64,000 nt of DNA from Candidatus Omnitrophota bacterium (GTDB lineage Bacteria > Omnitrophota > Gorgyraeia > 2-01-FULL-45-10). Below the pieces are notes generated by a model that worked only from the letters and a program-made list of their open reading frames with translations, did no database searches and was not told where the DNA came from. The first letter of the stretch is position 1. Every line of letters begins with the position of its first letter. Below, one piece after another: positions 24,212 through 64,000 of this stretch. The position numbers and the translations under genes were made by a program. Location of the stretch: positions 18,654-82,653 of the forward strand of contig JAQVUX010000003.1 in NCBI GenBank assembly GCA_028699255.1, in the 5' to 3' direction.

Positions 24212-24228
24212 GAAAAATAAAGGTATTT

Positions 24229-25788: not shown

Positions 25789-25818
25789 ACTCGCTATTCA
25801 CAATTTAAGGAGGATTAA

Positions 25819-26925: not shown

Positions 26926-26931
26926 TATTCT

Positions 26932-44771: not shown

Positions 44772-46171
44772 AAATATTACTGATAAACCCGTCGCAGAGA
44801 GCCGCATACGGCAAGTTTACCGATGTGCCGACGTTCTTTCCTATGGGGCTCGGGTATCTGGGCGCCTCACTGGAGAAGGGCGGGCACGAAGTTACTCTTG
44901 TGGATATGGATGCCCAGGGTCTTACCGAAGCGGGCCTTAAAGAAATACTCGATCGTACAGGATATGGCCTTGTAGGCATAACCGCGACTTCACCGACGGT
45001 GAAGAGTGCCTTCAAATTGGCCGCGTTCGTGAAATCCGGCGCGAATGCCCGCGTAGTGCTGGGCGGCGTTCATCCGACGCTTTTTCCTGATCATGTATTC
45101 GAATGTAATGATGTCGATTTTGCGATAAGAGGTGAGGGTGAAAATGCAATATTAGAATTAGCCGAGGCTCTGGGAAAGGATGCGGCGCTGGGTGGAATAT
45201 TGGGGCTATCGTTCAGGGGCCCGGAAGGTATTTTACATAATCCGCCGCGACCCCTGATAGAAGACCTGGACAGCCTGCCTTTTCCCATAATGCATAAACT
45301 GAACAAAAACCTTTATTCTTATCCCAATTCTCTCATGAAAAGGATAGCGCCTATATTGACATCGAGGGGTTGCCCGGGCCGATGCACATTTTGCTGTACA
45401 AAAAAGACTTTTGGGACGCGTATAAGATACAGGAGCGCTGAAAACGTAGTGGCCGAGCTCGCCTATCTTAAAGATAATTTCGGCACTCAGGAAATACATG
45501 TATGGGACGACAATTTTATTACCAATAAAAAATTCATAGTAGAGTTAAAGGATTTGATGAGAAAACGCGGCCTCTCTTTCAAGATATGTCTTGTTAACGG
45601 CGTCCGGGTCGATTTTTTTACGGAAGAGATGGCGGGATATTTGAAGGAGATGGGGGTTTATTCAATCGCTTTTGGCATCGAATCCGGGAGTCAGAGGGTT
45701 CTTGACGGAGTAAAGAAGGGCATAAAACTCGAAACTTCTATTAAAGCTGTGGCTATGGCCAGGAGATTTGGATTTGAGACATGGGGATTTTTCATGCTGG
45801 GCCTGCCCGGGGATGATAAGCAGACGATAAAAGAGACGATAGATTTTTCCGTGAAACTCGACCCTGATATAGCTAAGTTCCATATATTAAAGCCGTTTCC
45901 CGGCACAGAGGTTTATGACAAACTTAAAGAAGACGGCTGTTTATTGAGCATGGATTTTGACAGGTATGGCATACATACCGGGCCAGTCCACAGACTGCCG
46001 GGACTGACAGAGGACGATATGATCAAAGCGCAGAAGGCGGCGTACAAGGCATTCTATTTCAGGCCCAAAAAGATATTGAGCCAAATAAATAAACTTAAAA
46101 GTTTTGAAAGAGTAAAATTCCTGGCCAAGGCATCGTTTAATATGGTGAAAATATTAAGAGGTGACGTATGA
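44768..46171 (+). CDS. Cobalamin-binding (class B) radical SAM enzyme
   Basis: B12-binding N-terminus (KILLINPS...PMGLGYLGASL), radical SAM SRGCPGRCTFCCT. Confidence 0.8.
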   Translation: MKILLINPSQRAAYGKFTDVPTFFPMGLGYLGASLEKGGHEVTLVDMDAQGLTEAGLKEILDRTGYGLVGITATSPTVKSAFKLAAFVKSGANARVVLGGVHPTLFPDHVFECNDVDFAIRGEGENAILELAEALGKDAALGGILGLSFRGPEGILHNPPRPLIEDLDSLPFPIMHKLNKNLYSYPNSLMKRIAPILTSRGCPGRCTFCCTKKTFGTRIRYRSAENVVAELAYLKDNFGTQEIHVWDDNFITNKKFIVELKDLMRKRGLSFKICLVNGVRVDFFTEEMAGYLKEMGVYSIAFGIESGSQRVLDGVKKGIKLETSIKAVAMARRFGFETWGFFMLGLPGDDKQTIKETIDFSVKLDPDIAKFHILKPFPGTEVYDKLKEDGCLLSMDFDRYGIHTGPVHRLPGLTEDDMIKAQKAAYKAFYFRPKKILSQINKLKSFERVKFLAKASFNMVKILRGDV

Positions 46172-49443: not shown

Positions 49444-50174
49444 ATAAGAGCAAAAAGTTTTCATTATTAGTACTGGCGATCCTTTTGGCGGCTGTCATAG
49501 TCTTGGCCAATATCAACGTTTCGATAACGCAGGGCGTTGACGGCCGATTAAGGACTATAACGATGCCGCTCTATGTAAAGTGGATAGAGTTTTTATCGCG
49601 CCATTATGAATACGCGAGGATTGCCAAAGAGGTTACGGCGGGTTGCCGTTCCGACGAAGATAAGACGCTGGCGATACTGAAATGGACGCACGATAATATA
49701 AGAAAAACACCTTCGGAGTGGCCCGTAGTCGATGACCACGTGCTCAATATAATCATACGCGGGTATGGGGTGGCCGATCAGTTCCAGGATGTTTTTACCA
49801 CGTTATGCGCATACAGCGGTTTACCGGCATTTTATGAAGATACATATAACGATAAGAAAGAGGCGCGATATCCGATAGCGTTTGTCAAATTTAACAATTC
49901 ATGGCACGCCTTCGATGCCTATTACTATAAGTATTTTAAGACCAACGACGGCAGGATCGCTACCATCGAAGATATAATAAGGGACAGATCTATAATCGAT
50001 AAGGCTATCGGTGGCGATATGACATGGGGAGGAGTGCCGTATAGGAATTTTTACTATAGTTTAAAGCCGGTGGAGGAAGGAAAGACTCTTCGTCCCGCCA
50101 AACAGATGCCAATGAACAGGATATTATTCGAGATTAAGAAAGCGATAGGGTTGGAGAAGGGTAAGGCCGCATGA
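49440..50174 (+). CDS. Hypothetical exported/membrane-anchored protein (possibly transglutaminase-like Cys-His-Asp fold)
   Basis: N-terminal signal/TM (LLVLAILLAAVIVLA); Cys (TAGCRSDEDK) and downstream WHAFDAY His/Asp spacing loosely resembles transglutaminase-like core. Confidence 0.3.
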   Translation: MNKSKKFSLLVLAILLAAVIVLANINVSITQGVDGRLRTITMPLYVKWIEFLSRHYEYARIAKEVTAGCRSDEDKTLAILKWTHDNIRKTPSEWPVVDDHVLNIIIRGYGVADQFQDVFTTLCAYSGLPAFYEDTYNDKKEARYPIAFVKFNNSWHAFDAYYYKYFKTNDGRIATIEDIIRDRSIIDKAIGGDMTWGGVPYRNFYYSLKPVEEGKTLRPAKQMPMNRILFEIKKAIGLEKGKAA

Positions 50175-50548
50175 TATCTTCGGCAATACACGGCATAGGT
50201 GTTGATATAGAGGAGGTTCGCAGGTTCAAAACCATTAAAAGTAACTCGAGGTTTGCCCGGCGCGTATATACAAAGAACGAGCTTAGTTATTGTAATGCGT
50301 TTTCCGAGCCCGGGCCTCATCTCGCGGTACGGTTTGCCGCCAAAGAAGCCGTTTTGAAAGCCTTGGGCTCAGCGCGTAAAAATACAGGATTTAGCGATAT
50401 AGAAATACTTAACAGGAAAAACAGCGGAGAGCCGGTTGTGAACATTGCTAAAAACGGTATTAATAAAAAGTTTTCGTTTTTTATCAGCCTTTCACACTCG
50501 CAAACCAAGGCCGTAGCATTTTCGGTCATAACCAGGATAGCGCGATAG
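50171..50548 (+). CDS. acpS: Holo-[acyl-carrier-protein] synthase (4'-phosphopantetheinyl transferase, AcpS type)
   Basis: IHGIGVDIEEVRRFK Mg-binding start, 125 aa AcpS length, conserved FAAKEAVLKALG block. Confidence 0.7.
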   Translation: MISSAIHGIGVDIEEVRRFKTIKSNSRFARRVYTKNELSYCNAFSEPGPHLAVRFAAKEAVLKALGSARKNTGFSDIEILNRKNSGEPVVNIAKNGINKKFSFFISLSHSQTKAVAFSVITRIAR

Positions 50549-50556
50549 GGGTAATT

Positions 50557-52341
50557 ATGGAGAACGCGGTAGCTTATTATCACTCGGAAGACAGGAAGGT
50601 CGATAGGAAGAACAGGGTATTCCCAGTTTTTTCGCCGGATCCTAAGGTAGTAAGGGTTGCCATATTGGGAAGTTCCACATTAAAAGGCGTCAAAGAAGCG
50701 CTGAATGTAAAATGCAGTCAGGCAGGGCTCGTTATGAAATCTTATGTCGGGGAATATGCGCAGTATAATCAGGAGATCCTTGATAAAGGGAGCGGATTGT
50801 ATAAATTCAAACCGCACCTGACGATAATGATGATCGATATAATCGATCTTCTGGGGGAGAATTATTATTTTCCTTACAGGTTATCCGAACGCGGCCGCAA
50901 ATCTCTGGTCGAAGCCAAGCGGAAGGAGTTGTTATCTCTGGCAAAAGCTTTCGCCAAAGACTGCGACGGGGTACTTCTCATCAATAATTTCAGTGTACCG
51001 ACCTATTCTCCGATGGGGATACTGGAGCCCAAGCAAAAATTCGGTTTCTTCGAAATGATCCGTGCTCTTAACAGGGCGTTGGAAGAGGCCTCAAGGATGA
51101 ACCCTCAGTTGCATATATTTGATTATGATGCCTTTTTAAGCAAATCCGGAAAGATGGAGTGCTCCGATGATAAGATGCGGTATATAGCGGATATGAAGAT
51201 AAGTCAGAGCTATGTACCCGCTCTTTGTGATGAATATATGCGATACGTGAAAGCCATTAAGGCTAAAATGCGAAAATGCATAGTCCTCGACCTCGACAAT
51301 ACGCTGTGGGGTGGTATCGTAGGCGAGGATGATTTTGCAAGTTTAAGACTCGGCCCGACCGCGCCCGGCAACGCGTTCGTTGAGTTCCAGAAATATATCC
51401 TAAACCTTTTCGAGCGGGGCATCATCCTTGCCATAAACAGCAATAACAACGAAAAGGACTCGCTCGCGGTCATCAGAAAACATCCTCACATGATACTACG
51501 GGAAAAACATTTTGCCGCGATACGGATCAACTGGGAAAACAAAGTGCGAAACCTGGTGGATATAGCTAAAGAGATAAATATCGGCCTCGACAGTATTATA
51601 TATATAGACGACGATAAGGCAAATCGCCAGCTCGTCAGGGAGATGGCGCCGGAAGTGCTTACGCTGGAGATGCCGCCCGACGCCGCATTGTATGTGCGGA
51701 CGATCAGGGAATGTAAAGATCTCGATACTCTCCATATTACCGAAGAAGACATGAAGCGGGGCGCTATGTATGCCGAGGAGAAAAAACGGAAAGACTCGTT
51801 TAAATCTTTCGGCGATATAGGAGATTTTCTCGCTCATCTCAATATAGAGGTCAGGATCGAACGCTCCGGGTCGTTCTCTATTCCGAGGATATCGCAACTT
51901 ACGCAGAGAACCAATCAGTTCAATTTTACCACACGGCGCTTTTCGGATACGGATGTCCGCTCTCTGACAAGCGATAAGGCCGCCGAGATCTATTCGATCA
52001 GCGTAAAGGACAGGTTCGGGGATAGCGGTATATCAGGGATGGTTTCTTTTAAAGCGTCAAAGGATGCTATCATGGTCGAGGATCTTTTGCTGAGTTGCAG
52101 AGTGCTCGGCAAAGGTGTCGAAGAATCCGTGCTGGCTTTTCTCGTGGAGACGGCCCGCAAGTCGGATCTTAATCATATCATATGCAGATATATTCCGACG
52201 GCGAAAAATTCCATGGTACAAAAATTCCTAAAATCATCCGGTTTCGCGCGGGTAAAAATGCCCGGCAACGGCGAAACTTGGCGCTTTATGGTGAAGCGGG
52301 GATTTAAAAGACCGGGGCACATAAAGGTGGTTACAAAATGA
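50557..52341 (+). CDS. FkbH-like protein (HAD-superfamily IIIC phosphatase domain with C-terminal GNAT-like domain), predicted glyceryl-ACP loading enzyme
   Basis: HAD motif I CIVLDLDNTLWGG, HAD motif IV IIYIDDD, 594 aa FkbH-like architecture, directly upstream of ACP. Confidence 0.65.
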   Translation: MENAVAYYHSEDRKVDRKNRVFPVFSPDPKVVRVAILGSSTLKGVKEALNVKCSQAGLVMKSYVGEYAQYNQEILDKGSGLYKFKPHLTIMMIDIIDLLGENYYFPYRLSERGRKSLVEAKRKELLSLAKAFAKDCDGVLLINNFSVPTYSPMGILEPKQKFGFFEMIRALNRALEEASRMNPQLHIFDYDAFLSKSGKMECSDDKMRYIADMKISQSYVPALCDEYMRYVKAIKAKMRKCIVLDLDNTLWGGIVGEDDFASLRLGPTAPGNAFVEFQKYILNLFERGIILAINSNNNEKDSLAVIRKHPHMILREKHFAAIRINWENKVRNLVDIAKEINIGLDSIIYIDDDKANRQLVREMAPEVLTLEMPPDAALYVRTIRECKDLDTLHITEEDMKRGAMYAEEKKRKDSFKSFGDIGDFLAHLNIEVRIERSGSFSIPRISQLTQRTNQFNFTTRRFSDTDVRSLTSDKAAEIYSISVKDRFGDSGISGMVSFKASKDAIMVEDLLLSCRVLGKGVEESVLAFLVETARKSDLNHIICRYIPTAKNSMVQKFLKSSGFARVKMPGNGETWRFMVKRGFKRPGHIKVVTK

Positions 52342-52577
52342 AAACACTGAAAAAAATATTATCCGAAGTTCTGGGCGTGAGCCCCAACAAGATAAATGAT
52401 AATACCTCTCCCAAGAATGTGAAAAAGTGGGATTCCTTCCATGGCCTCTTACTGGTTACCGAGCTGGAAAATAGTTATAAGGTTAAGTTTAGCATGGACG
52501 ATGTTATATCCGTCAGGAATGTGGGAGACATAAAGAAGGCTTTAAAAAAATACGGGGTGAAGATTGAAGAAGCATAA
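52338..52577 (+). CDS. Acyl carrier protein
   Basis: 79 aa, phosphopantetheine-site motif KKWDSFHGLLLVTELE (DSx), acidic helix II. Confidence 0.7.
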   Translation: MKTLKKILSEVLGVSPNKINDNTSPKNVKKWDSFHGLLLVTELENSYKVKFSMDDVISVRNVGDIKKALKKYGVKIEEA

Positions 52578-52998
52578 AACGAGCGCCGGGCTGGAATATA
52601 AGGATATAAAGATCGGCAGTAGATATTCGTTCAGCAGGAGTATATCACAAATGGATGTGGAAAACTTCGCCGCGCTTTCCGGTGATTTCAATCCTCTGCA
52701 TCTGGACGAGAAATACGCCGGCTCCACGATGTTCGGAGGGACGATCGTCCATGGCATGCTCGCGGCCTCGTTTTTCTCGACTCTGATAGGAATGCTCTGC
52801 CCCGGCAGAAACGCCGTTATATTACAGCAGGAGATAAGGTATTTAAGCCCTGTGAGGCCGGGCCGTATTGTCAAGGCAACCGGCAAAGTTATACGAAAAG
52901 TCGACGCTCTGAAAATAATCGTTATGGAACATGCCGTAAAATCTAAGAGCGGCAAGGTTCTTATAGAAGGTGTTTCGAATATAAAAGTTATGAGGTGA
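52564..52998 (+). CDS. MaoC-like (R)-specific hydratase/dehydratase, hot-dog fold
   Basis: FAALSGDFNPLHLDEKYA hydratase motif. Confidence 0.75.
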   Translation: MKKHKTSAGLEYKDIKIGSRYSFSRSISQMDVENFAALSGDFNPLHLDEKYAGSTMFGGTIVHGMLAASFFSTLIGMLCPGRNAVILQQEIRYLSPVRPGRIVKATGKVIRKVDALKIIVMEHAVKSKSGKVLIEGVSNIKVMR

Positions 52999-53001
52999 AA
53001 G

Positions 53002-53751
53002 ATGCTGAGCGGAAAAGTAATTTTAATTACAGGTTCCAGCAGGGGGATAGGTTCCGAAACGGCGCGTCTTGCGGCAGGCCGCGGCGCGTCCGTCGTAATA
53101 AATTATAACAAAGACCGCTCCGGCGCTGAAAGTACGGCGGCGGCCATAAAGAAAGCCGGTAAAGGGCGCGCGGTGGTTGTAAAAGCCGATGTTTCACGGG
53201 AAGACGAGGCCGGTAAATTGATTGACCTGATCGTGAAAAAATTCGGGAAGATAGATGTGCTGATAAATAATGCCAGCGCGCCTATAGAGTACACGCCGCT
53301 TTCGGATATAAAATGGAAGTCGTTCCAGAAACATTATGAGGTGACGCTCCGGGGGGCTTTAAATATGGTGAAGCGCGTAGTCCCATTCATGTCCGCCCGC
53401 GGCCGCGGCAAAATCATAAATATACTTTCTTCCGTTACCGTGGGTGTGCCGCCGTCAAAATTCGCCGATTACATATCGGCCAAATACGCGCTTCTGGGGT
53501 TTTCCCGCGCGCTTGCCGTGGAGCTCGGCTCGTCGGGCATTACGGTAAACTGTATCTCGCCGGGCATGACAAATACTGCGATGACAGAAAAACTACCGGC
53601 GAAGATGAAAGAGATAGTTTCCTATACAACGCCGCTAAAAAGGCTGGCCGAGCCGGTCGACATAGCTCGTGTCGCGGCTTTTTTGTGCTCCAGCGATTCA
53701 GATTATATAACCGGAGTTAATATACCGGTGTGCGGTGGCAGTGTGATGTGA
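53002..53751 (+). CDS. fabG: 3-oxoacyl-ACP reductase-like short-chain dehydrogenase
   Basis: TGSSRGIGSETARLAA cofactor motif, NNAS, catalytic YISAKYALLGF (YxxxK). Confidence 0.8.
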   Translation: MLSGKVILITGSSRGIGSETARLAAGRGASVVINYNKDRSGAESTAAAIKKAGKGRAVVVKADVSREDEAGKLIDLIVKKFGKIDVLINNASAPIEYTPLSDIKWKSFQKHYEVTLRGALNMVKRVVPFMSARGRGKIINILSSVTVGVPPSKFADYISAKYALLGFSRALAVELGSSGITVNCISPGMTNTAMTEKLPAKMKEIVSYTTPLKRLAEPVDIARVAAFLCSSDSDYITGVNIPVCGGSVM

Positions 53752-53761
53752 GGTTTATATA

Positions 53762-54568
53762 GTGAACAGGCGAACGATCAAAAAAAGTATATCAGATATA
53801 GTGCTTTTTGCCGGAGCTTTCTCTGGAAATAATCCTCAGAAAGACGGGCTCCGCGTGCTGAATTATCATTCGATAACCGCTTTGCCGGTTTCGGCCGATC
53901 ATTATCAGATGACTACCCCGAGAGAGCTTTTTGACGGCCAGATGCGCTTCCTTAAAGAGAGTGGCTATAAAGTATTGACATGCGAGGAGGCGTTTTCCGC
54001 AGTCGGTAAAAGCGCGTCTTTGCCGTCCCGGAAGGTCTGTATAACTTTTGATGACGGTTTTAAGGACAATCTGGTTAACGCACTTCCGGTGTTGCGCAAG
54101 TACGGCTTTAAAGCGACGATATTTTTGACGATCGATTTTATCGGCAAGGACGATTCGTACCTTGGCTGGAAAGATATCGACGAACTCGCCATGACGGGGC
54201 TATTTTCTTTTGGCTCGCATACTATGAGTCACAGGAAGCTGTCTTTGCTTGGCGATGATGAGATTATCAAAGAGATCGGAGACTCAAAGAAGATCCTGGA
54301 AGACAGAACCAAAACCCCCGTCGATATATTCGCTTATCCGTTCGGATGTTACGGTTCGTTCGATGACAGATCCATAACAGCGGTCAGGGATAGCGGTTAT
54401 AAGGCGGCGGTGACAACCATAGCCGGGCTTAATTCCTCCGGCGACGATCCGTATCTTGTTAAAAGGATGCGCATATCATGGCAGGACGATACGCGGGAGT
54501 TTTCTAAACAGCTTTGCGGCGCATACGATTGGTACAGATTATGGCAGAGAATAACGACATTACGCTAA
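53762..54568 (+). CDS. Polysaccharide deacetylase (NodB/CE4 family)
   Basis: NodB motif 1 ITFDDGFKDN, motif 2 HTMSHRKL, motif 3-like AYPFG. Confidence 0.8.
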   Translation: MNRRTIKKSISDIVLFAGAFSGNNPQKDGLRVLNYHSITALPVSADHYQMTTPRELFDGQMRFLKESGYKVLTCEEAFSAVGKSASLPSRKVCITFDDGFKDNLVNALPVLRKYGFKATIFLTIDFIGKDDSYLGWKDIDELAMTGLFSFGSHTMSHRKLSLLGDDEIIKEIGDSKKILEDRTKTPVDIFAYPFGCYGSFDDRSITAVRDSGYKAAVTTIAGLNSSGDDPYLVKRMRISWQDDTREFSKQLCGAYDWYRLWQRITTLR

Positions 54569-55641
54569 AAATGGCCGCAGATGCACAGGCGAGGGCATCG
54601 GCCGATGTTTCATTCGGCCGCCTGTCCATGAAGGATGACGAGGAATATACAAAATTTCTTGTTACGGCGCATAAGGGGAGATTTAACGGTTATCTTTTTA
54701 AAGATCCCGGAATGGCCCGCAGGTTGTGGCGCTGGGAATATCTGGACAATCCCGATGCGCGCGACGGAGGGCCGTATATATGGATATGCAGGATAAAAGG
54801 CGCCATCGCCGGCCAGGCTTGCGTCATGCCGGTAATGGTAAAAACGGGTGATAGCTATTTCAGGGGCGGATGGTTTCAGGATCTTATCATGCTTCCGGAA
54901 TTCAGAAATACCGGAATAGGCTATTTTCTCGTTAAGCATGTACTTGGTGAATTAACGGCGTCGCTGGATATAGCGATGGTATCCGGAACCAATGAAGAAT
55001 CTTACCCTCTTTTTAAAACGCTTGGGTTTACCGATATGGGGCATATCGGTCGAAATATATATGTAAATGCGCTGTCCGCGTTTTTTACCACTACCGCCTG
55101 CAAGAGCGCTCTAGAGATAAATGAGATTAAGGATATAGGCGAGAGTTTTAATGAATTGTGGCGCGAACTTTCCGGGCGTTTTACCTGCGCCGTCGAAAGA
55201 GATAGCGAAAGAGTGAAGTGGAGGTTCGTCAATCAGCCATATTGGAGATATCGCATCTTTGCGGCGACACGCGGCGGATCTATGAGGGGTTATGTTGTGC
55301 TAAAGGAGAGCATCAAGCGTAAAGGCCCGCTGGGTTGTTTACGAGCTGGAACCATCTCAGATATATTTTTCGATCCTTCTGAAGAAGGAGTGGGTAGCGC
55401 GCTTATTGCCACGGCCGCACGTTATTTTAAAGGCAGGGCGGATATTATAAAATGCGATATCCTGAACGAAGGCGTAAAAACCGTGGTTATTAAGAATGGG
55501 TTTTTTAATACGGTTTCCAATAGCAGATTTCTTATGTATCCACTAAATAATATGGATGGAAGGGATGGGTTAGTAACTGTGGCAAAAGATCCTCGAACAT
55601 GGTTCCTTACCAATGGGGATTCAGATATGGATTTATCTTAA
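54514..55641 (+). CDS. GNAT-family acyltransferase, two-domain (alternative starts ATG 54541 / 54571)
   Basis: GNAT motif A LPEFRNTGIGYFLVKHVL; 375 aa suggests tandem GNAT-like folds. Confidence 0.5.
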   Translation: MRRIRLVQIMAENNDITLKMAADAQARASADVSFGRLSMKDDEEYTKFLVTAHKGRFNGYLFKDPGMARRLWRWEYLDNPDARDGGPYIWICRIKGAIAGQACVMPVMVKTGDSYFRGGWFQDLIMLPEFRNTGIGYFLVKHVLGELTASLDIAMVSGTNEESYPLFKTLGFTDMGHIGRNIYVNALSAFFTTTACKSALEINEIKDIGESFNELWRELSGRFTCAVERDSERVKWRFVNQPYWRYRIFAATRGGSMRGYVVLKESIKRKGPLGCLRAGTISDIFFDPSEEGVGSALIATAARYFKGRADIIKCDILNEGVKTVVIKNGFFNTVSNSRFLMYPLNNMDGRDGLVTVAKDPRTWFLTNGDSDMDLS

Positions 55642-55649: not shown

Positions 55650-55678
55650 TTGACAATAAGTTAAAGATGTAGTATTAT
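55650..55678 (+). promoter_or_regulatory. Sigma70-type promoter TTGACA-17nt-TATTAT upstream of HTH regulator gene
   Basis: Consensus -35, 17-nt spacer, 5/6 -10; located in 70-nt intergenic gap. Confidence 0.55.
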
Positions 55679-55710: not shown

Positions 55711-56211
55711 ATGGCCATGAATGAAAAATTAGAGTCAGCGCAACATAAATTTATAGAGAGTATAGGAAAGCTATGCGATAGCTTCGGATTCAACAAATTC
55801 ATCGCTCAACTTTATGCCCTTCTATATCTGAGTGACAGGCCTATGTCGCTCGATGAGCTCTCGGAAAAACTTTCGGCAAGTAAGGGCAATGTCAGCCTTA
55901 ATATAAGGGAACTTGAAAAATGGGGGGCTGTGAAGAATATTTGGGTGAAAGGCTCGAGAAAAGATTATTACGAAGCCGATACTGATATCAAAAAAGTCTT
56001 TTCCAACAAGATCAGGACGGCTGTCCAGAAGCGGATCGGCGAAATCTCCGGGATGGTTGGCGAATTCAACACGATAGTTGATTCGGCCAGTGCGGAGTTG
56101 ACTGAAGAAGAGAGGAAGATAGCGGCGCTTTACCGGGAGAGGATGAAGAAGATAGAGGATATGAAGAGTCTGGCATCAACGGCATTAAGTCTTATGGAGA
56201 AGATATTATAA
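55711..56211 (+). CDS. Winged-helix transcriptional regulator (MarR/GbsR/ArsR-like)
   Basis: HTH block LYALLYLSDRPMSLDELSEKLSASKGNVSLNIRELEKWGAV, 166 aa, C-terminal coiled-coil. Confidence 0.6.
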   Translation: MAMNEKLESAQHKFIESIGKLCDSFGFNKFIAQLYALLYLSDRPMSLDELSEKLSASKGNVSLNIRELEKWGAVKNIWVKGSRKDYYEADTDIKKVFSNKIRTAVQKRIGEISGMVGEFNTIVDSASAELTEEERKIAALYRERMKKIEDMKSLASTALSLMEKIL

Positions 56212-56227: not shown

Positions 56228-56914
56228 ATGAACAAGGCTATTTTAATACAGGCGCGTTTGTCGTCAAAAAGACTTCCCGGGAAAATGATGCTAAAGCTGG
56301 GCGGTATCCCGTTGGCCGAATTCGTATATCGGCGTTGTGAGATATCCAAAAAAGCCGGTATCATCGCCATTATAACTTCGACGGATAAAAGCGACGACGA
56401 ACTTTTTAAATACTGTGTTTCTAAAAAATTATGTGTTTACAGGGGCTCTCTGGACAACGTATTGGACAGGTATATATCCGCGGCTGAAGCCTATGCCTCG
56501 CATCTGGTATGCCGTGTATGCGGCGATTCGCCATTTGTGGATATTGAATTGGTCGACGCGATGTTCGATATGGTCGAAAAGGAGGGGGTTGATTATGCCG
56601 CCCCGGACAAAAAAAATTGCATGGCCGGGCTTGATTCGGAGGTAATAGCGACCGAAGCCTTAAAGAGAAGCGCCACCTCCGCAACTTCTAAAAACGATTT
56701 TGAGCACGTAACATCCAATATCAGGAATAATCCTGATAATTTCAATATCAGGTATATAAAAACGGAATTAAAACCCCGCGACCTGAATGCCATATCGGTA
56801 ACGGTCGATCATCAGAAAGACATGGATCTGTGCAATAAAGTGCTGAAGTCGATAGGGGATGGATATTCCTTCAGATCCGAAGATATTTTTAACGCTTTAA
56901 GAGAAAACAGGTAA
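56228..56914 (+). CDS. Acylneuraminate cytidylyltransferase-family enzyme (SpsF/PseF/NeuA-like CMP-sugar synthetase)
   Basis: N-terminus AILIQARLSSKRLPGKMMLKLGGIPL characteristic of CTP_transf_3 family. Confidence 0.7.
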   Translation: MNKAILIQARLSSKRLPGKMMLKLGGIPLAEFVYRRCEISKKAGIIAIITSTDKSDDELFKYCVSKKLCVYRGSLDNVLDRYISAAEAYASHLVCRVCGDSPFVDIELVDAMFDMVEKEGVDYAAPDKKNCMAGLDSEVIATEALKRSATSATSKNDFEHVTSNIRNNPDNFNIRYIKTELKPRDLNAISVTVDHQKDMDLCNKVLKSIGDGYSFRSEDIFNALRENR

Positions 56915-56917
56915 GCG

Positions 56918-57778
56918 ATGACAGATATCCCGAAATTCCCGAAAAGACTGGAGCTGGAGCTTGCCAGCAGTTGCAACCTGCGGTGTACGTATTGCCCGCG
57001 CCGTTACCTGGATAATCTGAACGGTTATATGGATTTTACCCTGTTCAAAAAGATAATAGACGAGGCAAGCGCGTATCCGGAGACCATAATAGTCCTGCAC
57101 AGGAGGGGGGAAAGCCTTCTTCATCCCAGATTTAACGACATAATAAATTATATCGCCGGAAAATTCAAAGAGATACAGCTCGCCACTAACGCTACGCTTC
57201 TGACCGAAGAAAAATTCGAGGCGATAGTAAAGGGGTTGAATTTTATCTCCTTCAGCCTCGATACGCCGGGCAATTATGACAAGACTCGTATCCCGGCGCG
57301 TTATGAAATCGTCGAGAGCAGGATATTGAAATTTTTGCAATTTAATAAAGGAAGGGTAAGAACCCAGGCTTCCATGGTCAAAACAGAAAAAACGAAAGAA
57401 ACGGATGTCGCGATATTCAAGGATGTCTGGCGCGCGCGTGTTGACAGGGTCCGCATATACGAGGAGCATTCAGTTGGCGGTGTTTTCGGCGCTATGAATA
57501 ATCCCAGGCGGGAAAGGAAAACCTGCGTTATGCCTTTCTACGAACTGCTGATCTATGACAGCGGTCGGGCCGGCAGGTGCAACCACGACTGGGATGGGGA
57601 ACCGATGGGGGATGTAAATGCCAATACGATCTCGGAAATATGGCACAGCCAACGGTATTCGAGCCTGAGAAAAGAACAGCGGGAGCTTAAGTTCAGCGAT
57701 GCGGTATGTAAAGATTGCGACTGTTGGTACGCGGAGATCGGCAAACAAGGGACGGGCGATGTTATCGAAAAATCTTAG
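56918..57778 (+). CDS. Radical SAM enzyme with SPASM/twitch-like C-terminal Cys cluster
   Basis: LASSCNLRCTYCP (CxxxCxxC); C-terminal CVMPF...CNHDWDG...CKDCDCW. Confidence 0.65.
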   Translation: MTDIPKFPKRLELELASSCNLRCTYCPRRYLDNLNGYMDFTLFKKIIDEASAYPETIIVLHRRGESLLHPRFNDIINYIAGKFKEIQLATNATLLTEEKFEAIVKGLNFISFSLDTPGNYDKTRIPARYEIVESRILKFLQFNKGRVRTQASMVKTEKTKETDVAIFKDVWRARVDRVRIYEEHSVGGVFGAMNNPRRERKTCVMPFYELLIYDSGRAGRCNHDWDGEPMGDVNANTISEIWHSQRYSSLRKEQRELKFSDAVCKDCDCWYAEIGKQGTGDVIEKS

Positions 57779-58913
57779 AAAAGACTTCCTACCTTTATCA
57801 AGGCCGTGCGTTGCGGACGACGAGATATCCGCCGCTTTGGCTGTGGTAAAGTCCGGTTGGTGGACGACGGGCGCGAACGTGGCGAGATTTGAGAGCGAAA
57901 TGTCCGCGTATCTTAAGGAAGACGTCGATGTATTTACGGCGGCGCTTTCATCATGCACGGCAGGGTTGCATCTGGCGCTTCTGGCTCTCGGTATAGGAGC
58001 AGGTGACGAGGTAATAGTGCCGACAATGACATTCGCGGCGACGGCGCAGGTTGTTGGTTGGGTCGGCGCAAAATTAGTGCTGTGCGACATAAACGAAGAC
58101 ACACTGAATATAGATACGGAAAAGGCGGAGAAGCTTATCACCGCCAGAACGAAGGCCATAATCCCGGTCCATATGGGCGGATATCCGTGCGATATGGCGG
58201 AGATAAGCAGGATAGCTAAAAAGTACAAATTGAAAGTGATAGAGGATGCCGCTCACGCGATCGGTACCAGGTACAACGGCAGAAAGATAGGTAACTTTTC
58301 GGATATTACGGTATTCAGTTTCTATGTGACGAAAAATCTGGCGATGGGCGAAGGCGGCATGGCCGTTTCCAGGGATAAGGCGCTTATCGACAAGATAAAG
58401 AGATTGAGCTATTTTGGAATAAATAAAGAGGCCTTTAAGCGCTACGAAAAATCCGGCAGTTGGTTTTATGATATAGAGGAGATGGGCTACAAGTATAATC
58501 TCGACGATCTTCATGGCGCCATAGGCCTGGCGCAGTTGCGCAAATTGGACGCGATGAATGACAGGCGCAGGGAGATCGCGGGTATTTACAGGCGCAAGCT
58601 TATTGCCCCCATCCGGTTTACTAAAGATTCGGACGAGCATTTCCATATTTATTATATATTTCAGATAAAAGTGCCGGGCAGGGATGCATTAATAAATAAG
58701 CTGAAAGAACGCAATATCGGCACAAGTGTGCATTTTATTCCTCTGCACATGCATAGTTTTTACAGATCCCGGTTCCCGGGAGAGAATTTTCCCGTCGCGA
58801 ATAAAGTATTTTCGGAAATATTATCTATTCCCATGTTCCCTTCTATGAATGAAGACGACGTGGGCTATGTCATTACCAATCTAAACGATCTTTTGAGGAG
58901 GCAGGATGGATAA
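57759..58913 (+). CDS. DegT/DnrJ/EryC1-family PLP-dependent sugar aminotransferase (PseC/LegC-like)
   Basis: LPLSRPCVADDEISAALAVVKSGWWTTG family N-terminus; ATG 57759 preferred over ORF-track 57699. Confidence 0.8.
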   Translation: MLSKNLRKDFLPLSRPCVADDEISAALAVVKSGWWTTGANVARFESEMSAYLKEDVDVFTAALSSCTAGLHLALLALGIGAGDEVIVPTMTFAATAQVVGWVGAKLVLCDINEDTLNIDTEKAEKLITARTKAIIPVHMGGYPCDMAEISRIAKKYKLKVIEDAAHAIGTRYNGRKIGNFSDITVFSFYVTKNLAMGEGGMAVSRDKALIDKIKRLSYFGINKEAFKRYEKSGSWFYDIEEMGYKYNLDDLHGAIGLAQLRKLDAMNDRRREIAGIYRRKLIAPIRFTKDSDEHFHIYYIFQIKVPGRDALINKLKERNIGTSVHFIPLHMHSFYRSRFPGENFPVANKVFSEILSIPMFPSMNEDDVGYVITNLNDLLRRQDG

Positions 58914-60213
58914 GTTTAAAAACGAATTACTGGATAGTAAAACGGTTTCTGTTTGGGGTATAGGGTATCTCGGATATACCAAGGCGATGCGGCTTTTATC
59001 GAAAGGGTTTAAGGTCAACATATTCGATCCTACGAACGCTTCGATCGGAAATAATTTTAAAAAGAATATATACCCCGGTAAACAGCAGGTCTATTCATGG
59101 ACGGAGAACGGTCATATACCGCCCATAGATATGTCTAATGTAAATATCGCCAATAGCGACACGATATTTAACGCAAAGATACATATCATTGCGCTTCCCA
59201 CTGCGGACAGGGAAGGCAACAGCCTGCTTAAAGAATTAGCGGGGATATTTAAAAAACATAAGAAACGCCTGAAAGACGCGTTGGTAATATTCGAATCGGC
59301 CGGGATGCCCGGAAGTATCGATAAAAATTTTATCGGCATACTTCATGCGCATAAGATCAGGTGCAGTTTTGTTTCCGCTTTCAGGAGCGACTGGACCCTG
59401 GAAGAATTCATGTCCCGGAACAGAAAACGTGTCCTGGCGGCAAACGACAAAGAATCTCTGGAAAAAGCCAAAGCCCTCTATGATGCCCTGGGCATCAGGT
59501 ACAAAACGCTGTCTTCCATAAAAGAGGCTGAGATATATGAGAACGCGAAGAATGGATTCCAGTTCATTGCCTCGATGTTCATAAACCAGCTGGCATTCGC
59601 CTATCCCGATACCAATATAAGGGAGATGACAAAGTATCTTTTAAACGACGTTGAGCTGAATGAATCGCATCTCAGTATAGGCGCGCTCGGATACAAGATG
59701 TTGTCGTCGGTGCAGAATATAATAGGGGGGAGCGCTAACCCGAACTTCCTTTCGCTTTTGAAGACGGCCGAAGACAGCAACATGAGCATGATATTGACCT
59801 ATGCCGATATCATAAAAAATATGGGATGCAGGAGCGTTTTATTGATGGGCCTTTCCATAAAAGGCAACCAGAAGAATATCGAGCTTTCGCCCTCAGTCGT
59901 ACTCGCGGAGTATTTTAACAGATTAGGCATAAAGGTTTATATAGACGATCCTTTTTACGATAAGGCGGCGCTATCCCGGATACTTCCGTTTAGCAGGAAC
60001 GCGGATATCCTTAAAAAGATGCCGAAGATCGACGCCTTTTTTGTCATGACGGGCCATAACAAATATAAACGTATTACCCAGGCTGACATAAAGCGCTCAC
60101 CTATTTATAACGCATCGATAATAATCGACAATGTTCCGATATTTAAAGAATTTAAATTTTCGGATTCTACGCTTTATCACGCGATCGGTGACGGTAAACT
60201 GAAAGCATTATAA
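58906..60213 (+). CDS. Divergent UDP-glucose/GDP-mannose dehydrogenase-family protein lacking the catalytic Cys
   Basis: Rossmann VSVWGIGYLGYTKAM, central AEIYENAKNGFQFIASMFINQLAF and C-terminal LLMGLSIKGNQ...IKVYIDDPF blocks align to Ugd; position of GFGGSCFPKD is ALGYKMLSSV. Confidence 0.5.
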   Translation: MDKFKNELLDSKTVSVWGIGYLGYTKAMRLLSKGFKVNIFDPTNASIGNNFKKNIYPGKQQVYSWTENGHIPPIDMSNVNIANSDTIFNAKIHIIALPTADREGNSLLKELAGIFKKHKKRLKDALVIFESAGMPGSIDKNFIGILHAHKIRCSFVSAFRSDWTLEEFMSRNRKRVLAANDKESLEKAKALYDALGIRYKTLSSIKEAEIYENAKNGFQFIASMFINQLAFAYPDTNIREMTKYLLNDVELNESHLSIGALGYKMLSSVQNIIGGSANPNFLSLLKTAEDSNMSMILTYADIIKNMGCRSVLLMGLSIKGNQKNIELSPSVVLAEYFNRLGIKVYIDDPFYDKAALSRILPFSRNADILKKMPKIDAFFVMTGHNKYKRITQADIKRSPIYNASIIIDNVPIFKEFKFSDSTLYHAIGDGKLKAL

Positions 60214-60214
60214 A

Positions 60215-61879
60215 ATGTGCGGAATAGCAGGATTTATATCGGAAAACAGAAGTTTTGATTCGGAGAAGCTGGTATCCGGGATGTTGGATCTCATCCGGTA
60301 CCGCGGTCCGGATCAAAAAGACGTCAAGGTTTATGACGGCGTCGCTCTCGGCATGGCCAGGCTTAGTATCATTGATCGGGAGAAACATGCGATCCCATAT
60401 GAGGATTCGACCGGTAATTACGCCATAGTATATAACGGCGAAATCTACAACCACGGTGATATACGGAAGCGCTTGGTAAAAAAATATGCTTTTAAGACCG
60501 CCTCCGACGCGGAAACAGTTCTTTATAATTATATCGAGAACGGACCGGCGTCTTTTAAAGAATATAACGGGATGTACGCGTTCGCTTTATACGATGATAT
60601 CAAAAAAAAGGTATTTATCGTGCGTGATAAGGCTGGCGAGAAACCGCTTTTCTATACGGAAGGCAAAGATTTTATAGCATTCGCCAGCGAAATGAAGTGC
60701 CTGCTTGAATTGGTCGAGCCCGAATTTAACAAGGAAGCCATTTCGTACAAGACATATGAGTTTACGGTCGGTAAAGAGACCCTTTTCAAAAACATATATT
60801 CTCTGGGCCCCGGCGAATACATGGAGATTTGCGGCGGCAAATTAACCAGGCGCGATTACTGGAAGGCGTGGGATAACCTGATAGAAATGAAAGATAACGA
60901 AAAGACCGTTTTAAGCAAACTGTCGGATCTTATCGAAGACGCGGTTCTCCTGAGGACCGGAAACAGCGTTCATGGTTACGGTTGTTTTGTAAGCGGCGGC
61001 GTGGATAGCGCGCTCGTTGCCTGTATAGCCAAGCCTGCGCGCCTGTATACGGTTCATTATGATTACGATGACTTCAATGAGCTTGAGTATGCCCAGCTTG
61101 TGGCAAAAAAGTTGAAAAAGAAACTGACGATAGTAAGGCCGAACAAGAAAGATTTTCTACGTACAAGGGATAAAATAGCATATCACCTCGATACTCCGTC
61201 GATATGGACTACATTCTCTTTGTGGATGCTCCTCGAGAGGGCGCATAAAGACGTAAAGGTGGTGCTTACCGGTGACGGCGCGGATGAGATGTTTTCGGGG
61301 TATCACAGATATTTTCTTCTGTATCACGACGAGCAGATACATAAACTGGAGGCCATGGAAAAATATACATACCTGATCGACAGATACTACGGCAGTCCCG
61401 TTGAAAGATACGCGAAGCTAATAAACAGGTGTGAGAATAAGTTCGATGAAGAGGTAAATAAATATCTGAATAAAAGTGTAGGGTTTTATTTTGACAAGAT
61501 AAATAATGATGTGATGCATTCGATGGGGCTTAATGATTTTTATACTACGATGCAGGTGCTCCTCCAGATGTATGACAGGACCTGCATGGCGTTCAGCGTG
61601 GAGAACAGGTCTCCTTTCCTTGACCATCGGCTTATCCAGTTCGCTTTTTCAATGCCGTCGAAATATAAAATACACAACGGTGTGACAAAATGGGCTATCA
61701 AGGAAGTGGCGAAGAAATTTATTCCCGAAGCGATCGTGAACAGGGTCGATAAGCGCGGGTTCTCGGCGCCGGTGAATAAATGGTTCGAGTGGGATAAGAA
61801 CGGAAAATATAACAGGACGGCGTATAAAAATATGGTATTTGAGGACTGGAAAAAGGTTTTTTCGGTAAAGGGAGCTTAG
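60215..61879 (+). CDS. Asparagine synthase-family glutamine amidotransferase (PseA/WbpS-like candidate)
   Basis: MCGIAGFI N-terminus, SGGVDSA PP-loop, 554 aa; adjacent to NeuB-like gene. Confidence 0.8.
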   Translation: MCGIAGFISENRSFDSEKLVSGMLDLIRYRGPDQKDVKVYDGVALGMARLSIIDREKHAIPYEDSTGNYAIVYNGEIYNHGDIRKRLVKKYAFKTASDAETVLYNYIENGPASFKEYNGMYAFALYDDIKKKVFIVRDKAGEKPLFYTEGKDFIAFASEMKCLLELVEPEFNKEAISYKTYEFTVGKETLFKNIYSLGPGEYMEICGGKLTRRDYWKAWDNLIEMKDNEKTVLSKLSDLIEDAVLLRTGNSVHGYGCFVSGGVDSALVACIAKPARLYTVHYDYDDFNELEYAQLVAKKLKKKLTIVRPNKKDFLRTRDKIAYHLDTPSIWTTFSLWMLLERAHKDVKVVLTGDGADEMFSGYHRYFLLYHDEQIHKLEAMEKYTYLIDRYYGSPVERYAKLINRCENKFDEEVNKYLNKSVGFYFDKINNDVMHSMGLNDFYTTMQVLLQMYDRTCMAFSVENRSPFLDHRLIQFAFSMPSKYKIHNGVTKWAIKEVAKKFIPEAIVNRVDKRGFSAPVNKWFEWDKNGKYNRTAYKNMVFEDWKKVFSVKGA

Positions 61880-61882
61880 CCG

Positions 61883-62977
61883 ATGAGTGGGATAGCAAGG
61901 GACAAGGCCAGATATTATAGCGAACTTGAAAAGTTTGTGAAGGTCTGTAAAAAACTGAACAGATCCGGCGGAGCATATCTGGTGATTATAGCCAGTCATG
62001 AACTGTACAGGTTCCTTTATCCGTATGAACCTTATGAAGGTTTTCATAACAGGATGCCCGTTAAATTCATAGCAAATAAGATAGTCGAGCTTAATGATTT
62101 TTTGGATAAAAGCTCGAGGGCCATCAAGTTTTACGATTTCGATGTTAAAAAATTCGGCGCCGGCGCTTCGCCCGATACCGGTCTGGAGAAGAAGACCTCG
62201 GACCTGTATACGTCCCTTTGGGAAAAATTCGAGCACACGGCTATTATTGAAGAAAGCAAGAAACTGATCTCCAGTCGCATACCGGGTAAGATCATCGAGA
62301 GCTGTATAAAAGGTAAGGTCGTTCTCGATATGGGGTGCGGTAGCGGCAGGTATTCCATCGCGCTCTCGCTTCTTGGCGCGAAGAAAGTTTACGCGCTCGA
62401 TCTTTTTGAACAATCTTTTGCGGCATACAGGAAAATCGCTCGCGGTAAGGGGTTGAACATCGAGTTTCGCGAAGGTAATTTCCATAATCTGCCTTATCCC
62501 GGCGACTACTTTGATTTTATTTTTTGCAACGGTACGATGCATCACTCCACCTCTATCAGGAAGAGTCTGGCGGAATTTAAAAGGGTTCTGAAGCCCGGAC
62601 ACAAGGGGTTTGTATATATTTATGCAAAAGGAGGTATTTTCTGGGATACGCGTAAGAAGATGCGCGAGATATTCAGAGAGGTACCCTCCGGGTACACCAA
62701 TGAAGTATTGAAGATAATGTTTATGCCATCGAATAGATTTATATTCGCGGATACGTGGCATGTGCCCATAGAGGAGCATACCTCCAGAAAAGACCTTGAG
62801 TGTATGTTTAAGGAGCTGGGCCTTAGATTCCGGAAGATAATATCAAAAGGCATGTTCGACCTGGACAGAGTTGCGCACAGGAGCGCCGAGGATTCAGTGA
62901 TGTGGGGAGACGGAGAACATCGTTATATACTGGAGAAGCCGGATGTACATAATAGCGGAAATCGGTATAAATCATAA
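61883..62977 (+). CDS. Class I SAM-dependent methyltransferase with ~150 aa N-terminal extension
   Basis: Motif I VLDMGCGSGRYSIAL, VLKPGHKGFVYIY. Confidence 0.65.
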   Translation: MSGIARDKARYYSELEKFVKVCKKLNRSGGAYLVIIASHELYRFLYPYEPYEGFHNRMPVKFIANKIVELNDFLDKSSRAIKFYDFDVKKFGAGASPDTGLEKKTSDLYTSLWEKFEHTAIIEESKKLISSRIPGKIIESCIKGKVVLDMGCGSGRYSIALSLLGAKKVYALDLFEQSFAAYRKIARGKGLNIEFREGNFHNLPYPGDYFDFIFCNGTMHHSTSIRKSLAEFKRVLKPGHKGFVYIYAKGGIFWDTRKKMREIFREVPSGYTNEVLKIMFMPSNRFIFADTWHVPIEEHTSRKDLECMFKELGLRFRKIISKGMFDLDRVAHRSAEDSVMWGDGEHRYILEKPDVHNSGNRYKS

Positions 62978-64000
62978 CGGCAGTTTCGAGAATTGTATTA
63001 AGATGATAGACGCCTCTGCCGATGCGGGATGCGATGCGGCGAAGTTTCAACTTTTCCGGGCGGCATCTCTTTATCCGAAGAGCGCCGGGAAGCTGGAGTG
63101 GAAGGGCCGAAGGGGTGGATACTCGTACGATATATACGGCGCGGTAAAGGGTTTCGAACTGCCCTATAGCTGGATCGACCCATTGATAGCATATTGCAAA
63201 AAAAGGAAGATAGATTTCCTTTCATCCGTCTTTGATATGAAGGATGCGGATATTCTGGCCGAAAAAGGAGTGAAACGGATAAAACTCAGCTCTTATACGG
63301 TGACGAATATACCGCTTATAGAACATTGCGCGAAAAAGCGAATGTCGATAATTTTGTCTACGGGAGGTGCCCTGCTTGGCGAGGTCGAAGAGGCCGTCGA
63401 TGCGGTGATACGACACCACGGCAGGCTTTCATTGCTCCATTGTAATATAAGTTATCCGACGGCCCCGAGGGATTGCAATCTCGGGATCATAAGCACGTTA
63501 AAAACGGCGTTTCCTGATCTGATGATCGGTTTTTCGGACCATACCGCCGGTATATCCGAAGCCGCGGTCCAATCCGTCTATGTGGGGGCGCAGATAATAG
63601 AAAAACATATTACGCTGGATAAAAAGATGGAAGGCCCGGATCATTTTTTTGCGCTGGAACCTCGCGAACTGAAGCAGATGGTTGGGGACATCAGGAAAGC
63701 ATCGGCCGATGCGGTAAAAAAATGCGGGTTCCGTATCGACAAAACATTTTACGGCAACACCGCGAAGATAGTAGGGCGCAATGAAAAATATCTAAGAGAC
63801 TTCGCTTTCATGAAGTTATTCGCAAAAAGAAGCATTAAAAAAGGCGACAGGATCAGGTGTTCGGATATTTCTATACTGCGCCCGGGTAAAAAGGCGCATG
63901 GCCTCGAACCGAAATATGTCAGTCTTTTTAAAGATTTTGTTGTTACCGCAAAGCGGGACATGAGCCCTGAAGACCCTATAACATGGAGCTCGATACTTAA
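62943..64000 (+). CDS. N-acetylneuraminate/pseudaminate/legionaminate synthase family (NeuB-like), 3'-truncated by window end
   Basis: MYIIAEIGINHNGSFENCIKMIDASADAGCDAAKFQ NeuB TIM-barrel N-terminus; later SAF-domain-like block RCSDISILRPGKKAHGL; no stop in-frame before 64000 (absent from ORF track for that reason). Confidence 0.75.
   Translation, partial: MYIIAEIGINHNGSFENCIKMIDASADAGCDAAKFQLFRAASLYPKSAGKLEWKGRRGGYSYDIYGAVKGFELPYSWIDPLIAYCKKRKIDFLSSVFDMKDADILAEKGVKRIKLSSYTVTNIPLIEHCAKKRMSIILSTGGALLGEVEEAVDAVIRHHGRLSLLHCNISYPTAPRDCNLGIISTLKTAFPDLMIGFSDHTAGISEAAVQSVYVGAQIIEKHITLDKKMEGPDHFFALEPRELKQMVGDIRKASADAVKKCGFRIDKTFYGNTAKIVGRNEKYLRDFAFMKLFAKRSIKKGDRIRCSDISILRPGKKAHGLEPKYVSLFKDFVVTAKRDMSPEDPITWSSIL

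Follow-up and report, generated by a model that had tools for sequence, protein, structure and literature searches.

We analysed a 64,000-nucleotide stretch of DNA from a Candidatus Omnitrophota bacterium (assembly GCA_028699255.1, contig JAQVUX010000003.1, positions 18,654 to 82,653 of the forward strand; hereafter, the window). Its last 8 kb hold a module of tightly packed or overlapping open reading frames (ORFs), all on the + strand, including genes for a cytidylyltransferase, a radical S-adenosylmethionine (SAM) enzyme, a DegT-family aminotransferase, a protein with the UGDH fold (here called UgdL), an AsnB-family amidotransferase and a NeuB-family synthase. Nonulosonic acids (NulOs), such as sialic, pseudaminic (Pse) and legionaminic (Leg) acids, decorate bacterial flagella, capsules and lipopolysaccharide, and shape immune and phage recognition. 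Our preferred reading, which we hold at even confidence, is that the region is the 5' half of an operon for a CMP-activated 5,7-diamino NulO destined for a Wzx-type surface polysaccharide of a diderm member of the Omnitrophota, and that it represents a conserved variant of the pathway. By analogy with an antibiotic pathway, ketone formation by the radical SAM enzyme followed by DegT transamination would supply the second amino group without a 4,6-dehydratase, a proposal whose chances we also judge to be balanced. NulO biosynthesis is known; this cassette, with its conserved core of radical SAM enzyme, aminotransferase and amidotransferase, is an uncharacterised version of the pathway. Searches of the literature on radical SAM enzymes in NulO biosynthesis, or on this cassette, returned nothing relevant.

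Conservation of the cassette and the search for a 4,6-dehydratase

Using the window proteins as tblastn queries, we compared gene neighbourhoods in contigs from Desulfobacter, Sulfurimonas and Sphaerochaetaceae and in 38 species-representative genomes. Gene order was counted at loci with at least 5 kb of downstream sequence, and NeuB, PseG and WbuX genes at loci flanked by 9 kb or more on each side. Of 32 independent loci, 26 have the genes for the radical SAM enzyme, DegT, UgdL and AsnB in precisely this sequence, so that their co-localisation is not due to chance, and three further loci from Nitrospinota (L020, L023 and L028) carry the permuted order DegT, radical SAM, UgdL, AsnB. In 22 of 34 loci, the cytidylyltransferase gene immediately precedes that for the radical SAM enzyme, and the five-gene block is usually followed by an SpsE-like NeuB gene, a PseG-like gene and a GNAT gene. 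A NeuB or PseG-like gene was present at 14 of 19 loci, a WbuX-family gene at 11 and the pair of a PIG-L deacetylase and a formyltransferase at 6.

Across about a dozen phyla, represented mostly by uncultured anaerobes, sequence identity within the cassette remains at 55-79%. The hosts belong to Nitrospirota, Omnitrophota, Campylobacterota, Desulfobacterota, Nitrospinota, Pseudomonadota, Planctomycetota (Scalindua), Cloacimonadota, Dependentiae, Myxococcota and Spirochaetota, and nearly all are metagenome-assembled genomes, which probably explains the lack of publications. The first-pass annotation of this DNA, made from the sequence alone, had flagged the radical SAM gene as unusual for a NulO operon; within what proved to be a widespread cassette, no other gene is as strongly conserved. 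A protein of identical sequence (100%) is encoded in a 'Candidatus Omnitrophica' metagenome-assembled genome, and close homologues number in the hundreds; the best 120 listed are 60-79% identical and 281-300 amino acids long, apart from one of 270. More distant relatives (44-47% identity) retain DegT and AsnB as neighbours, and one of them adjoins NeuB, also at loci that have no UgdL gene. Since these distant relatives keep their neighbours without the Ugd-like gene, the ancestral unit appears to be radical SAM, DegT and AsnB.

To our knowledge, all characterised 5,7-diamino NulO pathways begin with an NAD-dependent UDP- or GDP-N-acetylglucosamine 4,6-dehydratase (PseB, LegB or PglF/SpsM), and Pse and Leg clusters commonly carry its gene. 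We searched for one by tblastn and phmmer using Helicobacter pylori PseB as the probe, which was validated against PDB entry 2gn4 (752 bits). No PseB, PglF or CapD homologue was found in the window, in the approximately 18 kb downstream of it that are covered by contigs L001 and L044 (about 82 kb in total), or at 42 loci within 10 kb on either side of the cassette; the probe gave only weak cross-family matches to RmlB- and TviC-type short-chain dehydrogenases/reductases (SDRs). The SDR genes of the window were considered as dehydratase candidates and rejected: those at 18996 (RmlB, above its cutoff), 22353 (TviC-like) and 23279 (UXS/ArnA-like) do not encode PseB, LegB or PglF.

Enzymes encoded by the module and its downstream extension

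The radical SAM enzyme contains the CxxxCxxC motif that binds the SAM cluster (C19, C23 and C26) and four further cysteines for an auxiliary cluster (C203, C221, C264 and C267), and all seven are invariant. As exactly four additional invariant cysteines are present, the enzyme should hold one auxiliary cluster only. BtrN was its best match among PDB sequences (E 1.4e-11), aligning over both the core and the C-terminal auxiliary-cluster segment, and was also the top Foldseek match (4m7t, TM score 0.72 normalised to the target) of an AlphaFold2 model with a pLDDT of 86.6. Other carbohydrate-acting radical SAM enzymes, DesII, BlsE and SpeY, were among the Foldseek matches of the model. By sequence and predicted structure, the enzyme thus appears closest to the BtrN-like group of twitch-type radical SAM enzymes with a single auxiliary cluster.

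In the 2-deoxystreptamine pathway of butirosin, the twitch radical SAM dehydrogenase BtrN is followed by the DegT-family aminotransferase BtrS. The enzyme of the window is similar to BtrN in size, has one auxiliary cluster whose four cysteines align with those of BtrN, and is likewise encoded next to a DegT aminotransferase. However, the two are only about 19% identical, and BtrN acts on an aminocyclitol in an antibiotic context, whereas the substrate here would presumably be a nucleotide sugar for a surface glycan. Two other activities were considered for the enzyme and are disfavoured: cysteine-dependent radical epimerisation of the NeoN type, for want of an eighth conserved cysteine, and 3-deoxygenating dehydration of the BlsE/AprD4 type, as on chemical grounds the 3-hydroxyl of the hexose should become the ring oxygen of the NulO. 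A 577-amino-acid fusion of radical SAM and DegT proteins (P0247, L045 1909-5190), which came up as the closest 50%-cluster representative, was set aside; the same contig carries a split DegT gene and a split UgdL gene, and the fusion is most likely an assembly frameshift artefact, not a natural protein.

The DegT protein, with a conserved SFYxTKN motif around the lysine that binds pyridoxal phosphate, appears to be an aminotransferase of the type that acts at C4 of UDP-4-keto-sugars. Its scores against the ArnB model (354 bits) and the PseC model (342.6 bits; cutoff 423.5) were both below cutoff. Against PDB sequences, it matched ArnB at 294 bits and H. pylori PseC at 131 bits, making ArnB, from the UDP-4-amino-4-deoxy-L-arabinose pathway, the closest solved structure. 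The proposed chemistry resembles that of ArnA and ArnB, in which a 4-keto intermediate derived from a UDP-uronic acid is transaminated at C4; however, no SDR decarboxylase of the ArnA type is encoded in the cassette.

The first-pass annotation had described the following protein as a Ugd-family member lacking cysteine, which is right but understated. In 104 family members, the catalytic cysteine column is occupied by lysine (86), arginine (11), glutamine (6) or alanine (1), the catalytic lysine column by glutamate in 95, and the catalytic aspartate column is variable. The protein nevertheless has the full three-domain UGDH/GMD fold in an AlphaFold2 model (pLDDT 91.7), with Foldseek E-values of 4e-19 to UDP-ManNAc and UDP-glucose dehydrogenases at 15-19% identity and a TM score of 0.76 to 1mfz, and the GxGxxG motif is kept (G18, G20 and G23 are conserved). 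Because the catalytic residues are replaced, UgdL should be unable to perform a four-electron oxidation through a thiohemiacetal, and the possibility that it is an ordinary UDP-sugar 6-dehydrogenase was ruled out by the loss of the cysteine, lysine and aspartate positions across the members examined. With a positive charge where the nucleophile used to be, the site would be suited to binding a C6 carboxylate. A 455-amino-acid relative at L032 12948-14315 shares the family-specific motifs RRDW, NQLSLAYP and DPYF with UgdL and keeps the canonical catalytic cysteine and lysine; by these features it looks like an intermediate between active UDP-HexNAc (N-acetylhexosamine) 6-dehydrogenases and the altered UgdL.

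AsnB has the features of the class II glutamine amidotransferase/AsnB family (TIGR01536, 388 bits; cutoff 267), with an N-terminal MCGIAG nucleophile and an SGGVDS PP-loop. Its orthologues are 55-69% identical, 32 of 33 keep both MCG and SGGxDS, and the enzyme looks fully active. Among solved structures, it is most closely related to the hydroxyamidotransferase TsnB9 and to asparagine synthetase B, and its expected chemistry is the ATP-dependent conversion of a carboxylate to a carboxamide. The conserved gene context argues against a housekeeping asparagine synthetase.

The first-pass annotation had labelled this protein a PseA-like amidotransferase that could form an acetamidino group, a label which does not hold. 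AsnB chemistry adenylates carboxylates, not amides, and PseA is a member of the WbuX/NASAT family. A gene of that family lies 5.8 kb past the window end, adjoining HisH and WbuZ genes (TIGR03573, 322.8 bits; cutoff 203.2). By contrast, AsnB had no TIGR03573 match in NCBIfam searches and no significant similarity to the downstream WbuX protein, the sole local match being the SGGxDS PP-loop. Acetamidino-forming enzymes belong to the NASAT/WbuX family, which is characterised by a PP-loop and a tetracysteine zinc site and whose published alignment includes Campylobacter proteins (PMC10607449). The acetamidino enzyme is the downstream WbuX, not the AsnB of the window. As in systems where WbuX, WbpG or PseA works with HisH/HisF-like partners, this 410-amino-acid protein is a family member above cutoff with the same partners encoded beside it; it is separate from AsnB, lies outside the window and would account for an acetamidino NulO.

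At L003 14959-17062, and likewise in L004, L008, L009, L014 and L037, a sub-module between AsnB and NeuB encodes a hexapeptide acetyltransferase (WbbJ/WcaF-like), a WbuX-family amidotransferase (314 bits) and a conserved 116-amino-acid protein without a family match. A second AsnB paralogue of about 30% identity often follows this sub-module, and might supply ammonia in place of HisH/HisF.

The NeuB gene is truncated in the window, as had been noted, which holds 352 of its 353 codons; the last codon and the stop lie outside. Contig L001, which is 100% identical to the window over 12,118 overlapping bases and was used to extend it, carries the methyltransferase gene and the full-length NeuB gene. 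The protein has the PF03102 TIM barrel and a SAF domain, both above Pfam cutoffs, and is not a KDO8P or DAHP synthase, alternatives against which the first-pass annotation had wanted it checked. It aligns over its full length to Bacillus subtilis SpsE (1vli, 263 bits), compared with 113 bits for Neisseria meningitidis NeuB and 111 bits for PseI, and scores 216 on the PseI model against a cutoff of 340, so that among these proteins it is closest in sequence to SpsE. The cytidylyltransferase gave only weak KdsB matches and no match to the PseF or NeuA models in NCBIfam. Its best PDB match was 6oew, annotated 'cytidylyltransferase' (80 bits), and it is presumed to be a CMP-sugar synthetase.

The description of a NulO module running off the window end was borne out by the genes that follow NeuB in L001. 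A PseG-like UDP-sugar hydrolase (117 bits; cutoff 153.6) comes first, followed by a 255-amino-acid GNAT protein (20 bits on the PseH model; cutoff 93), a PIG-L deacetylase, a methyltransferase, an ArnA-N-like formyltransferase, HisH, WbuZ/HisF, the WbuX-family protein, another methyltransferase and another radical SAM/SPASM protein. Of the PseB-, PseG- and LegB-type genes that had been expected beyond the window, a PseG-like gene was thus found, and PseB or LegB was not. A 96%-identical relative, L044, adds 10 kb beyond L001 and encodes a Wzx-type flippase, a GT2 glycosyltransferase, another radical SAM protein and the start of a second CTP_transf_3 protein. The last of these, at L044 13907-14421 and about 20 kb past the window end, best matches PseF (68 bits on the partial sequence), and a second NulO module may follow it.

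Proposed pathway and competing explanations

Under the preferred reading, the BtrN-like radical SAM enzyme would remove the carbinol hydrogen at a hydroxyl-bearing carbon of the sugar, in all likelihood C4 of a UDP-HexNAc derivative, and so oxidise the alcohol to a ketone. The adjacent DegT enzyme would then turn this ketone into an amine, following the logic of BtrN and BtrS and replacing PseB and PseC. The GNAT protein would acetylate the new amine, the PseG-like enzyme would remove UDP, NeuB would condense the resulting aldose with phosphoenolpyruvate (PEP), and the cytidylyltransferase would activate the product. As tailoring steps, WbuX, HisH and WbuZ could introduce an acetamidino group, the PIG-L and formyltransferase proteins could exchange N-acetyl for N-formyl, and the methyltransferases could methylate the sugar.

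More speculatively, AsnB would amidate a sugar carboxylate with glutamine-derived ammonia, the likeliest target being the C6 carboxylate of a UDP-HexNAc-uronic acid, and UgdL, with lysine or arginine at the position of the former thiol nucleophile, would bind the uronate carboxylate. Prior amidation by AsnB would prevent the decarboxylation that a 4-keto-uronate otherwise undergoes, and C9 of the product would bear a carboxamide where Pse and Leg have a 9-deoxy methyl group. That the substrate is a UDP-HexNAc-uronic acid is a doubtful assignment. Uronic acid could be supplied by a TviB-like UDP-GlcNAc 6-dehydrogenase (524 bits), whose gene flanks the cassette at several loci, and in the window by a nucleotide-sugar dehydrogenase and a TviC-like protein encoded at 21-23 kb. 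The step proposed here, in which an AsnB homologue amidates a C6 carboxylate, is reportedly part of a route of the gougerotin type to a 4-amino-4-deoxy-glucuronamide, a comparison that we offer as a lead only.

The complete scheme would be a PseB/LegB-independent, radical-SAM-initiated route to a new class of NulO, a sugar that would be widespread on the surfaces of uncultured anaerobes. After amidation of a uronate, C4 oxidation, transamination and acetylation, loss of UDP and condensation with PEP would yield a 5,7-diacetamido-3,5,7-trideoxy-nonulosonic acid with a C9 carboxamide. In all its parts together we consider this scheme unlikely. The predicted monoisotopic mass of this NulO is 363.13 Da, compared with 334.14 Da for Leg5Ac7Ac or Pse5Ac7Ac.

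The logic of the Campylobacter and Helicobacter pathway (PseB/C/H/G/I/F) is the same, from an amino-sugar nucleotide through N-acetylation, UDP hydrolysis and PEP condensation to CMP activation. However, the standard Pse/Leg gene set that the first-pass annotation implied is not what the region encodes: PseB and LegB are missing, the cytidylyltransferase has no PseF match, the scores on the PseC, PseI and PseG models are all below the equivalog cutoffs, and the GNAT protein barely resembles PseH. The product predicted there, a 5,7-diamino NulO with possible amidino and methyl modifications, is still a reasonable prediction, possibly with N-formylation; what falls away is the assignment of the amidino step to AsnB. 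The Sps pathway of B. subtilis (PMC7439481) shares with the region, at the family level, an SpsE-like synthase, a PseG-like hydrolase, a DegT protein, an acetyltransferase and a CTP_transf_3 protein. Both have a PseG-like hydrolase rather than a NeuC-type epimerase, UDP-linked intermediates are implied in both, and both lack a dehydratase gene in the operon. In B. subtilis, SpsE is genetically required for Leg together with the PseG-like SpsG (PMC7439481). Genes for radical SAM, Ugd-like and AsnB proteins, by contrast, are absent from the Sps pathway, which relies on SpsM, a dehydratase of the SDR type.

Several points weigh against the preferred reading. The radical SAM enzyme could be a dehydratase, like BlsE and AprD4, or an epimerase, and not a dehydrogenase; DegT matches the ArnB and PseC profiles almost equally; the role proposed for UgdL is putative, and the carboxamide conjectural. 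The five-gene block can stand alone, as at Nitrospirota loci, where RCC1-repeat and subtilase genes come after it and there is no NeuB within 10 kb. With a PseF-like gene starting in L044, a conventional module may lie further downstream. Finally, the lack of a linked dehydratase gene is suggestive but not conclusive, because in B. subtilis spsM likewise lies at a locus separate from spsC-G (PMC7439481).

This last precedent is the starting point for an explanation to which we give an appreciable chance, well short of even. A conventional Leg/Pse pathway of the Sps type would operate, with an unlinked dehydratase feeding DegT, and the radical SAM enzyme, UgdL and AsnB would tailor the free or CMP-linked NulO or the polymer. 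The SpsE-like NeuB, the score of DegT on the PseC model (343 bits) and the PseF-like second cytidylyltransferase, which hints at more NulO genes, are in keeping with it, as is the precedent of Kdo8N, in which oxidation and DegT transamination act on a finished ulosonic acid; the transaminase KdnA (5k8b) was among the DegT matches. Against it stand the dehydratase searches described above, the position of the single conserved DegT gene between those for the radical SAM enzyme and UgdL, and the tighter conservation of the trio of radical SAM, DegT and AsnB than of NeuB. We regard as improbable a division into two pathways, in which the radical SAM enzyme, DegT, UgdL and AsnB would make a diamino-hexuronamide nucleotide sugar for glycosyltransferases while NeuB, the PseG-like enzyme and GNAT made an unrelated NulO. 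Such a product would be comparable to the 2,3- or 2,4-diacetamido-uronamides of O-antigens. In favour of this division, the block occurs without NeuB or PseG-like genes in L048 as well as in the Nitrospirota loci, AsnB implies a carboxylate substrate and TviB-like dehydrogenases are encoded nearby; moreover, BlsE, one of the fold matches, offers a precedent for radical SAM and aminotransferase chemistry on a hexuronic acid nucleoside. However, the cytidylyltransferase and NeuB genes bracket the block in most loci, NeuB abuts the radical SAM gene in a divergent subfamily, and the NeuB, PseG-like and GNAT proteins would be left without an aminotransferase of their own. Much the least probable explanation, and one that we give very little credence, is that AsnB acts as a PseA-like enzyme converting N-acetyl to acetamidino on a standard Pse or Leg. 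Both families belong to the PP-loop ATP pyrophosphatase superfamily and the glutaminase domain of AsnB looks active, but a genuine WbuX/NASAT gene with its partners lies downstream and accompanies the cassette in many loci, and neither the profile searches nor the carboxylate chemistry of AsnB fits such a role.

Layout of the module, the wider glycan region and significance

The seven module ORFs reported in the first-pass annotation were all recovered at the same coordinates and on the same strand in the ORF listing and gene calls, and Pfam and NCBIfam profile searches upheld every domain call (Table 1). The DegT start is consistent with the gene call and with homologue lengths. Upstream of the cytidylyltransferase gene, a winged-helix regulator gene is the probable first gene of the transcription unit; a 39%-identical homologue lies directly upstream of the radical SAM gene in L033. 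The methyltransferase is accessory and outside the conserved core, a 55%-identical gene being present at the same position in L012 and absent from most loci. A 376-amino-acid antisense ORF over this gene (61649-62779, - strand) is supported by neither gene calls nor synteny and is probably spurious.

Table 1 Features of the module and of the wider glycan region (window coordinates)
Feature	Coordinates	Strand	Basis or remark
Sigma-70-like promoter match TTGACA-17-TATTAT	55650..55678	+	11/12, consensus match only; sole real intergenic gap upstream of the module
Small winged-helix (MarR/ArsR-like) regulator	55711..56211	+	Sub-threshold Pfam helix-turn-helix (HTH) matches
CTP_transf_3 cytidylyltransferase, 228 aa	56228..56914	+	PF02348, 95 bits
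Twitch-type radical SAM enzyme (by similarity), 286 aa	56918..57778	+	Radical_SAM and SPASM
DegT-family pyridoxal phosphate aminotransferase, 384 aa	57759..58913	+	PF01041, 404 bits
UGDH-fold protein (UgdL), 435 aa	58906..60213	+	Weak matches, N- and C-terminal UDPG_MGDP_dh domains only
AsnB-family amidotransferase, 554 aa	60215..61879	+	GATase_7 and Asn_synthase
Class-I SAM methyltransferase, 364 aa	61883..62977	+	Pfam; N-terminal region of ~140 aa uncharacterised
NeuB-family nonulosonate synthase with C-terminal SAF	62943..64000	+	NeuB 241 bits, SAF 24.5 bits
Third AsnB	113-1999		
B12-binding radical SAM	12889-15042		Fused class-I methyltransferase domain
B12-binding radical SAM	15014-16471		
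B12-binding radical SAM	32131-33585		
B12-binding radical SAM	40982-42463		
B12-binding radical SAM	44768-46171		
Plain radical SAM	35366-36445		
Radical SAM/SPASM	37851-39290		
Ugd	16480		
rmlC/A/B/D	17821-20961		
Nucleotide-sugar dehydrogenase and TviC-like 4-epimerase	21049-23282		
UXS/ArnA-like decarboxylase	23279-24211		
Second DegT	25819		
Second AsnB paralogue	26932		Follows the second DegT
4'-Phosphopantetheinyl transferase	50171-50548		
FkbH	50557-52341		TIGR01686, 296 bits
79-aa carrier protein	~52338-52577		

The whole window is a single + strand glycan-biosynthesis region of even G+C content. Between 12889 and 46171, radical SAM genes, including five for B12-binding enzymes, are unusually dense among GT2 and GT4 glycosyltransferase genes and many SAM methyltransferase genes, a density that suggests extensive C- or O-methylation of the polysaccharide. 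An acyl side-chain module at 50171-55641 encodes, besides the three proteins listed, a MaoC dehydratase, an SDR ketoreductase, a polysaccharide deacetylase and a GNAT protein, and is consistent with the placement of a glyceryl- or hydroxyacyl-ACP (acyl carrier protein)-derived N-acyl group on an amino sugar. A second set of nucleotide-sugar genes occupies 16480-28809. At 8078-12917 and 24705-25322, a 732-amino-acid protein with LptC- and LptA-like domains, a UbiA prenyltransferase and PMT_2 (ArnT-like) glycosyltransferases are encoded, which point to a diderm host and perhaps also to lipid-linked sugar transfer. The stretch 4706-7434 carries genes for two diguanylate cyclases of the GGDEF type.

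If the cassette does specify a separate route, sugar-modifying radical SAM chemistry would extend from antibiotic pathways to primary cell-surface glycan biosynthesis, and a new NulO structure would be predicted that could be searched for in mass-spectrometric surveys. It would also provide an annotation rule for several hundred to a few thousand genes, which are at present labelled 'radical SAM protein', 'UDP binding domain-containing protein' or 'asparagine synthase'.

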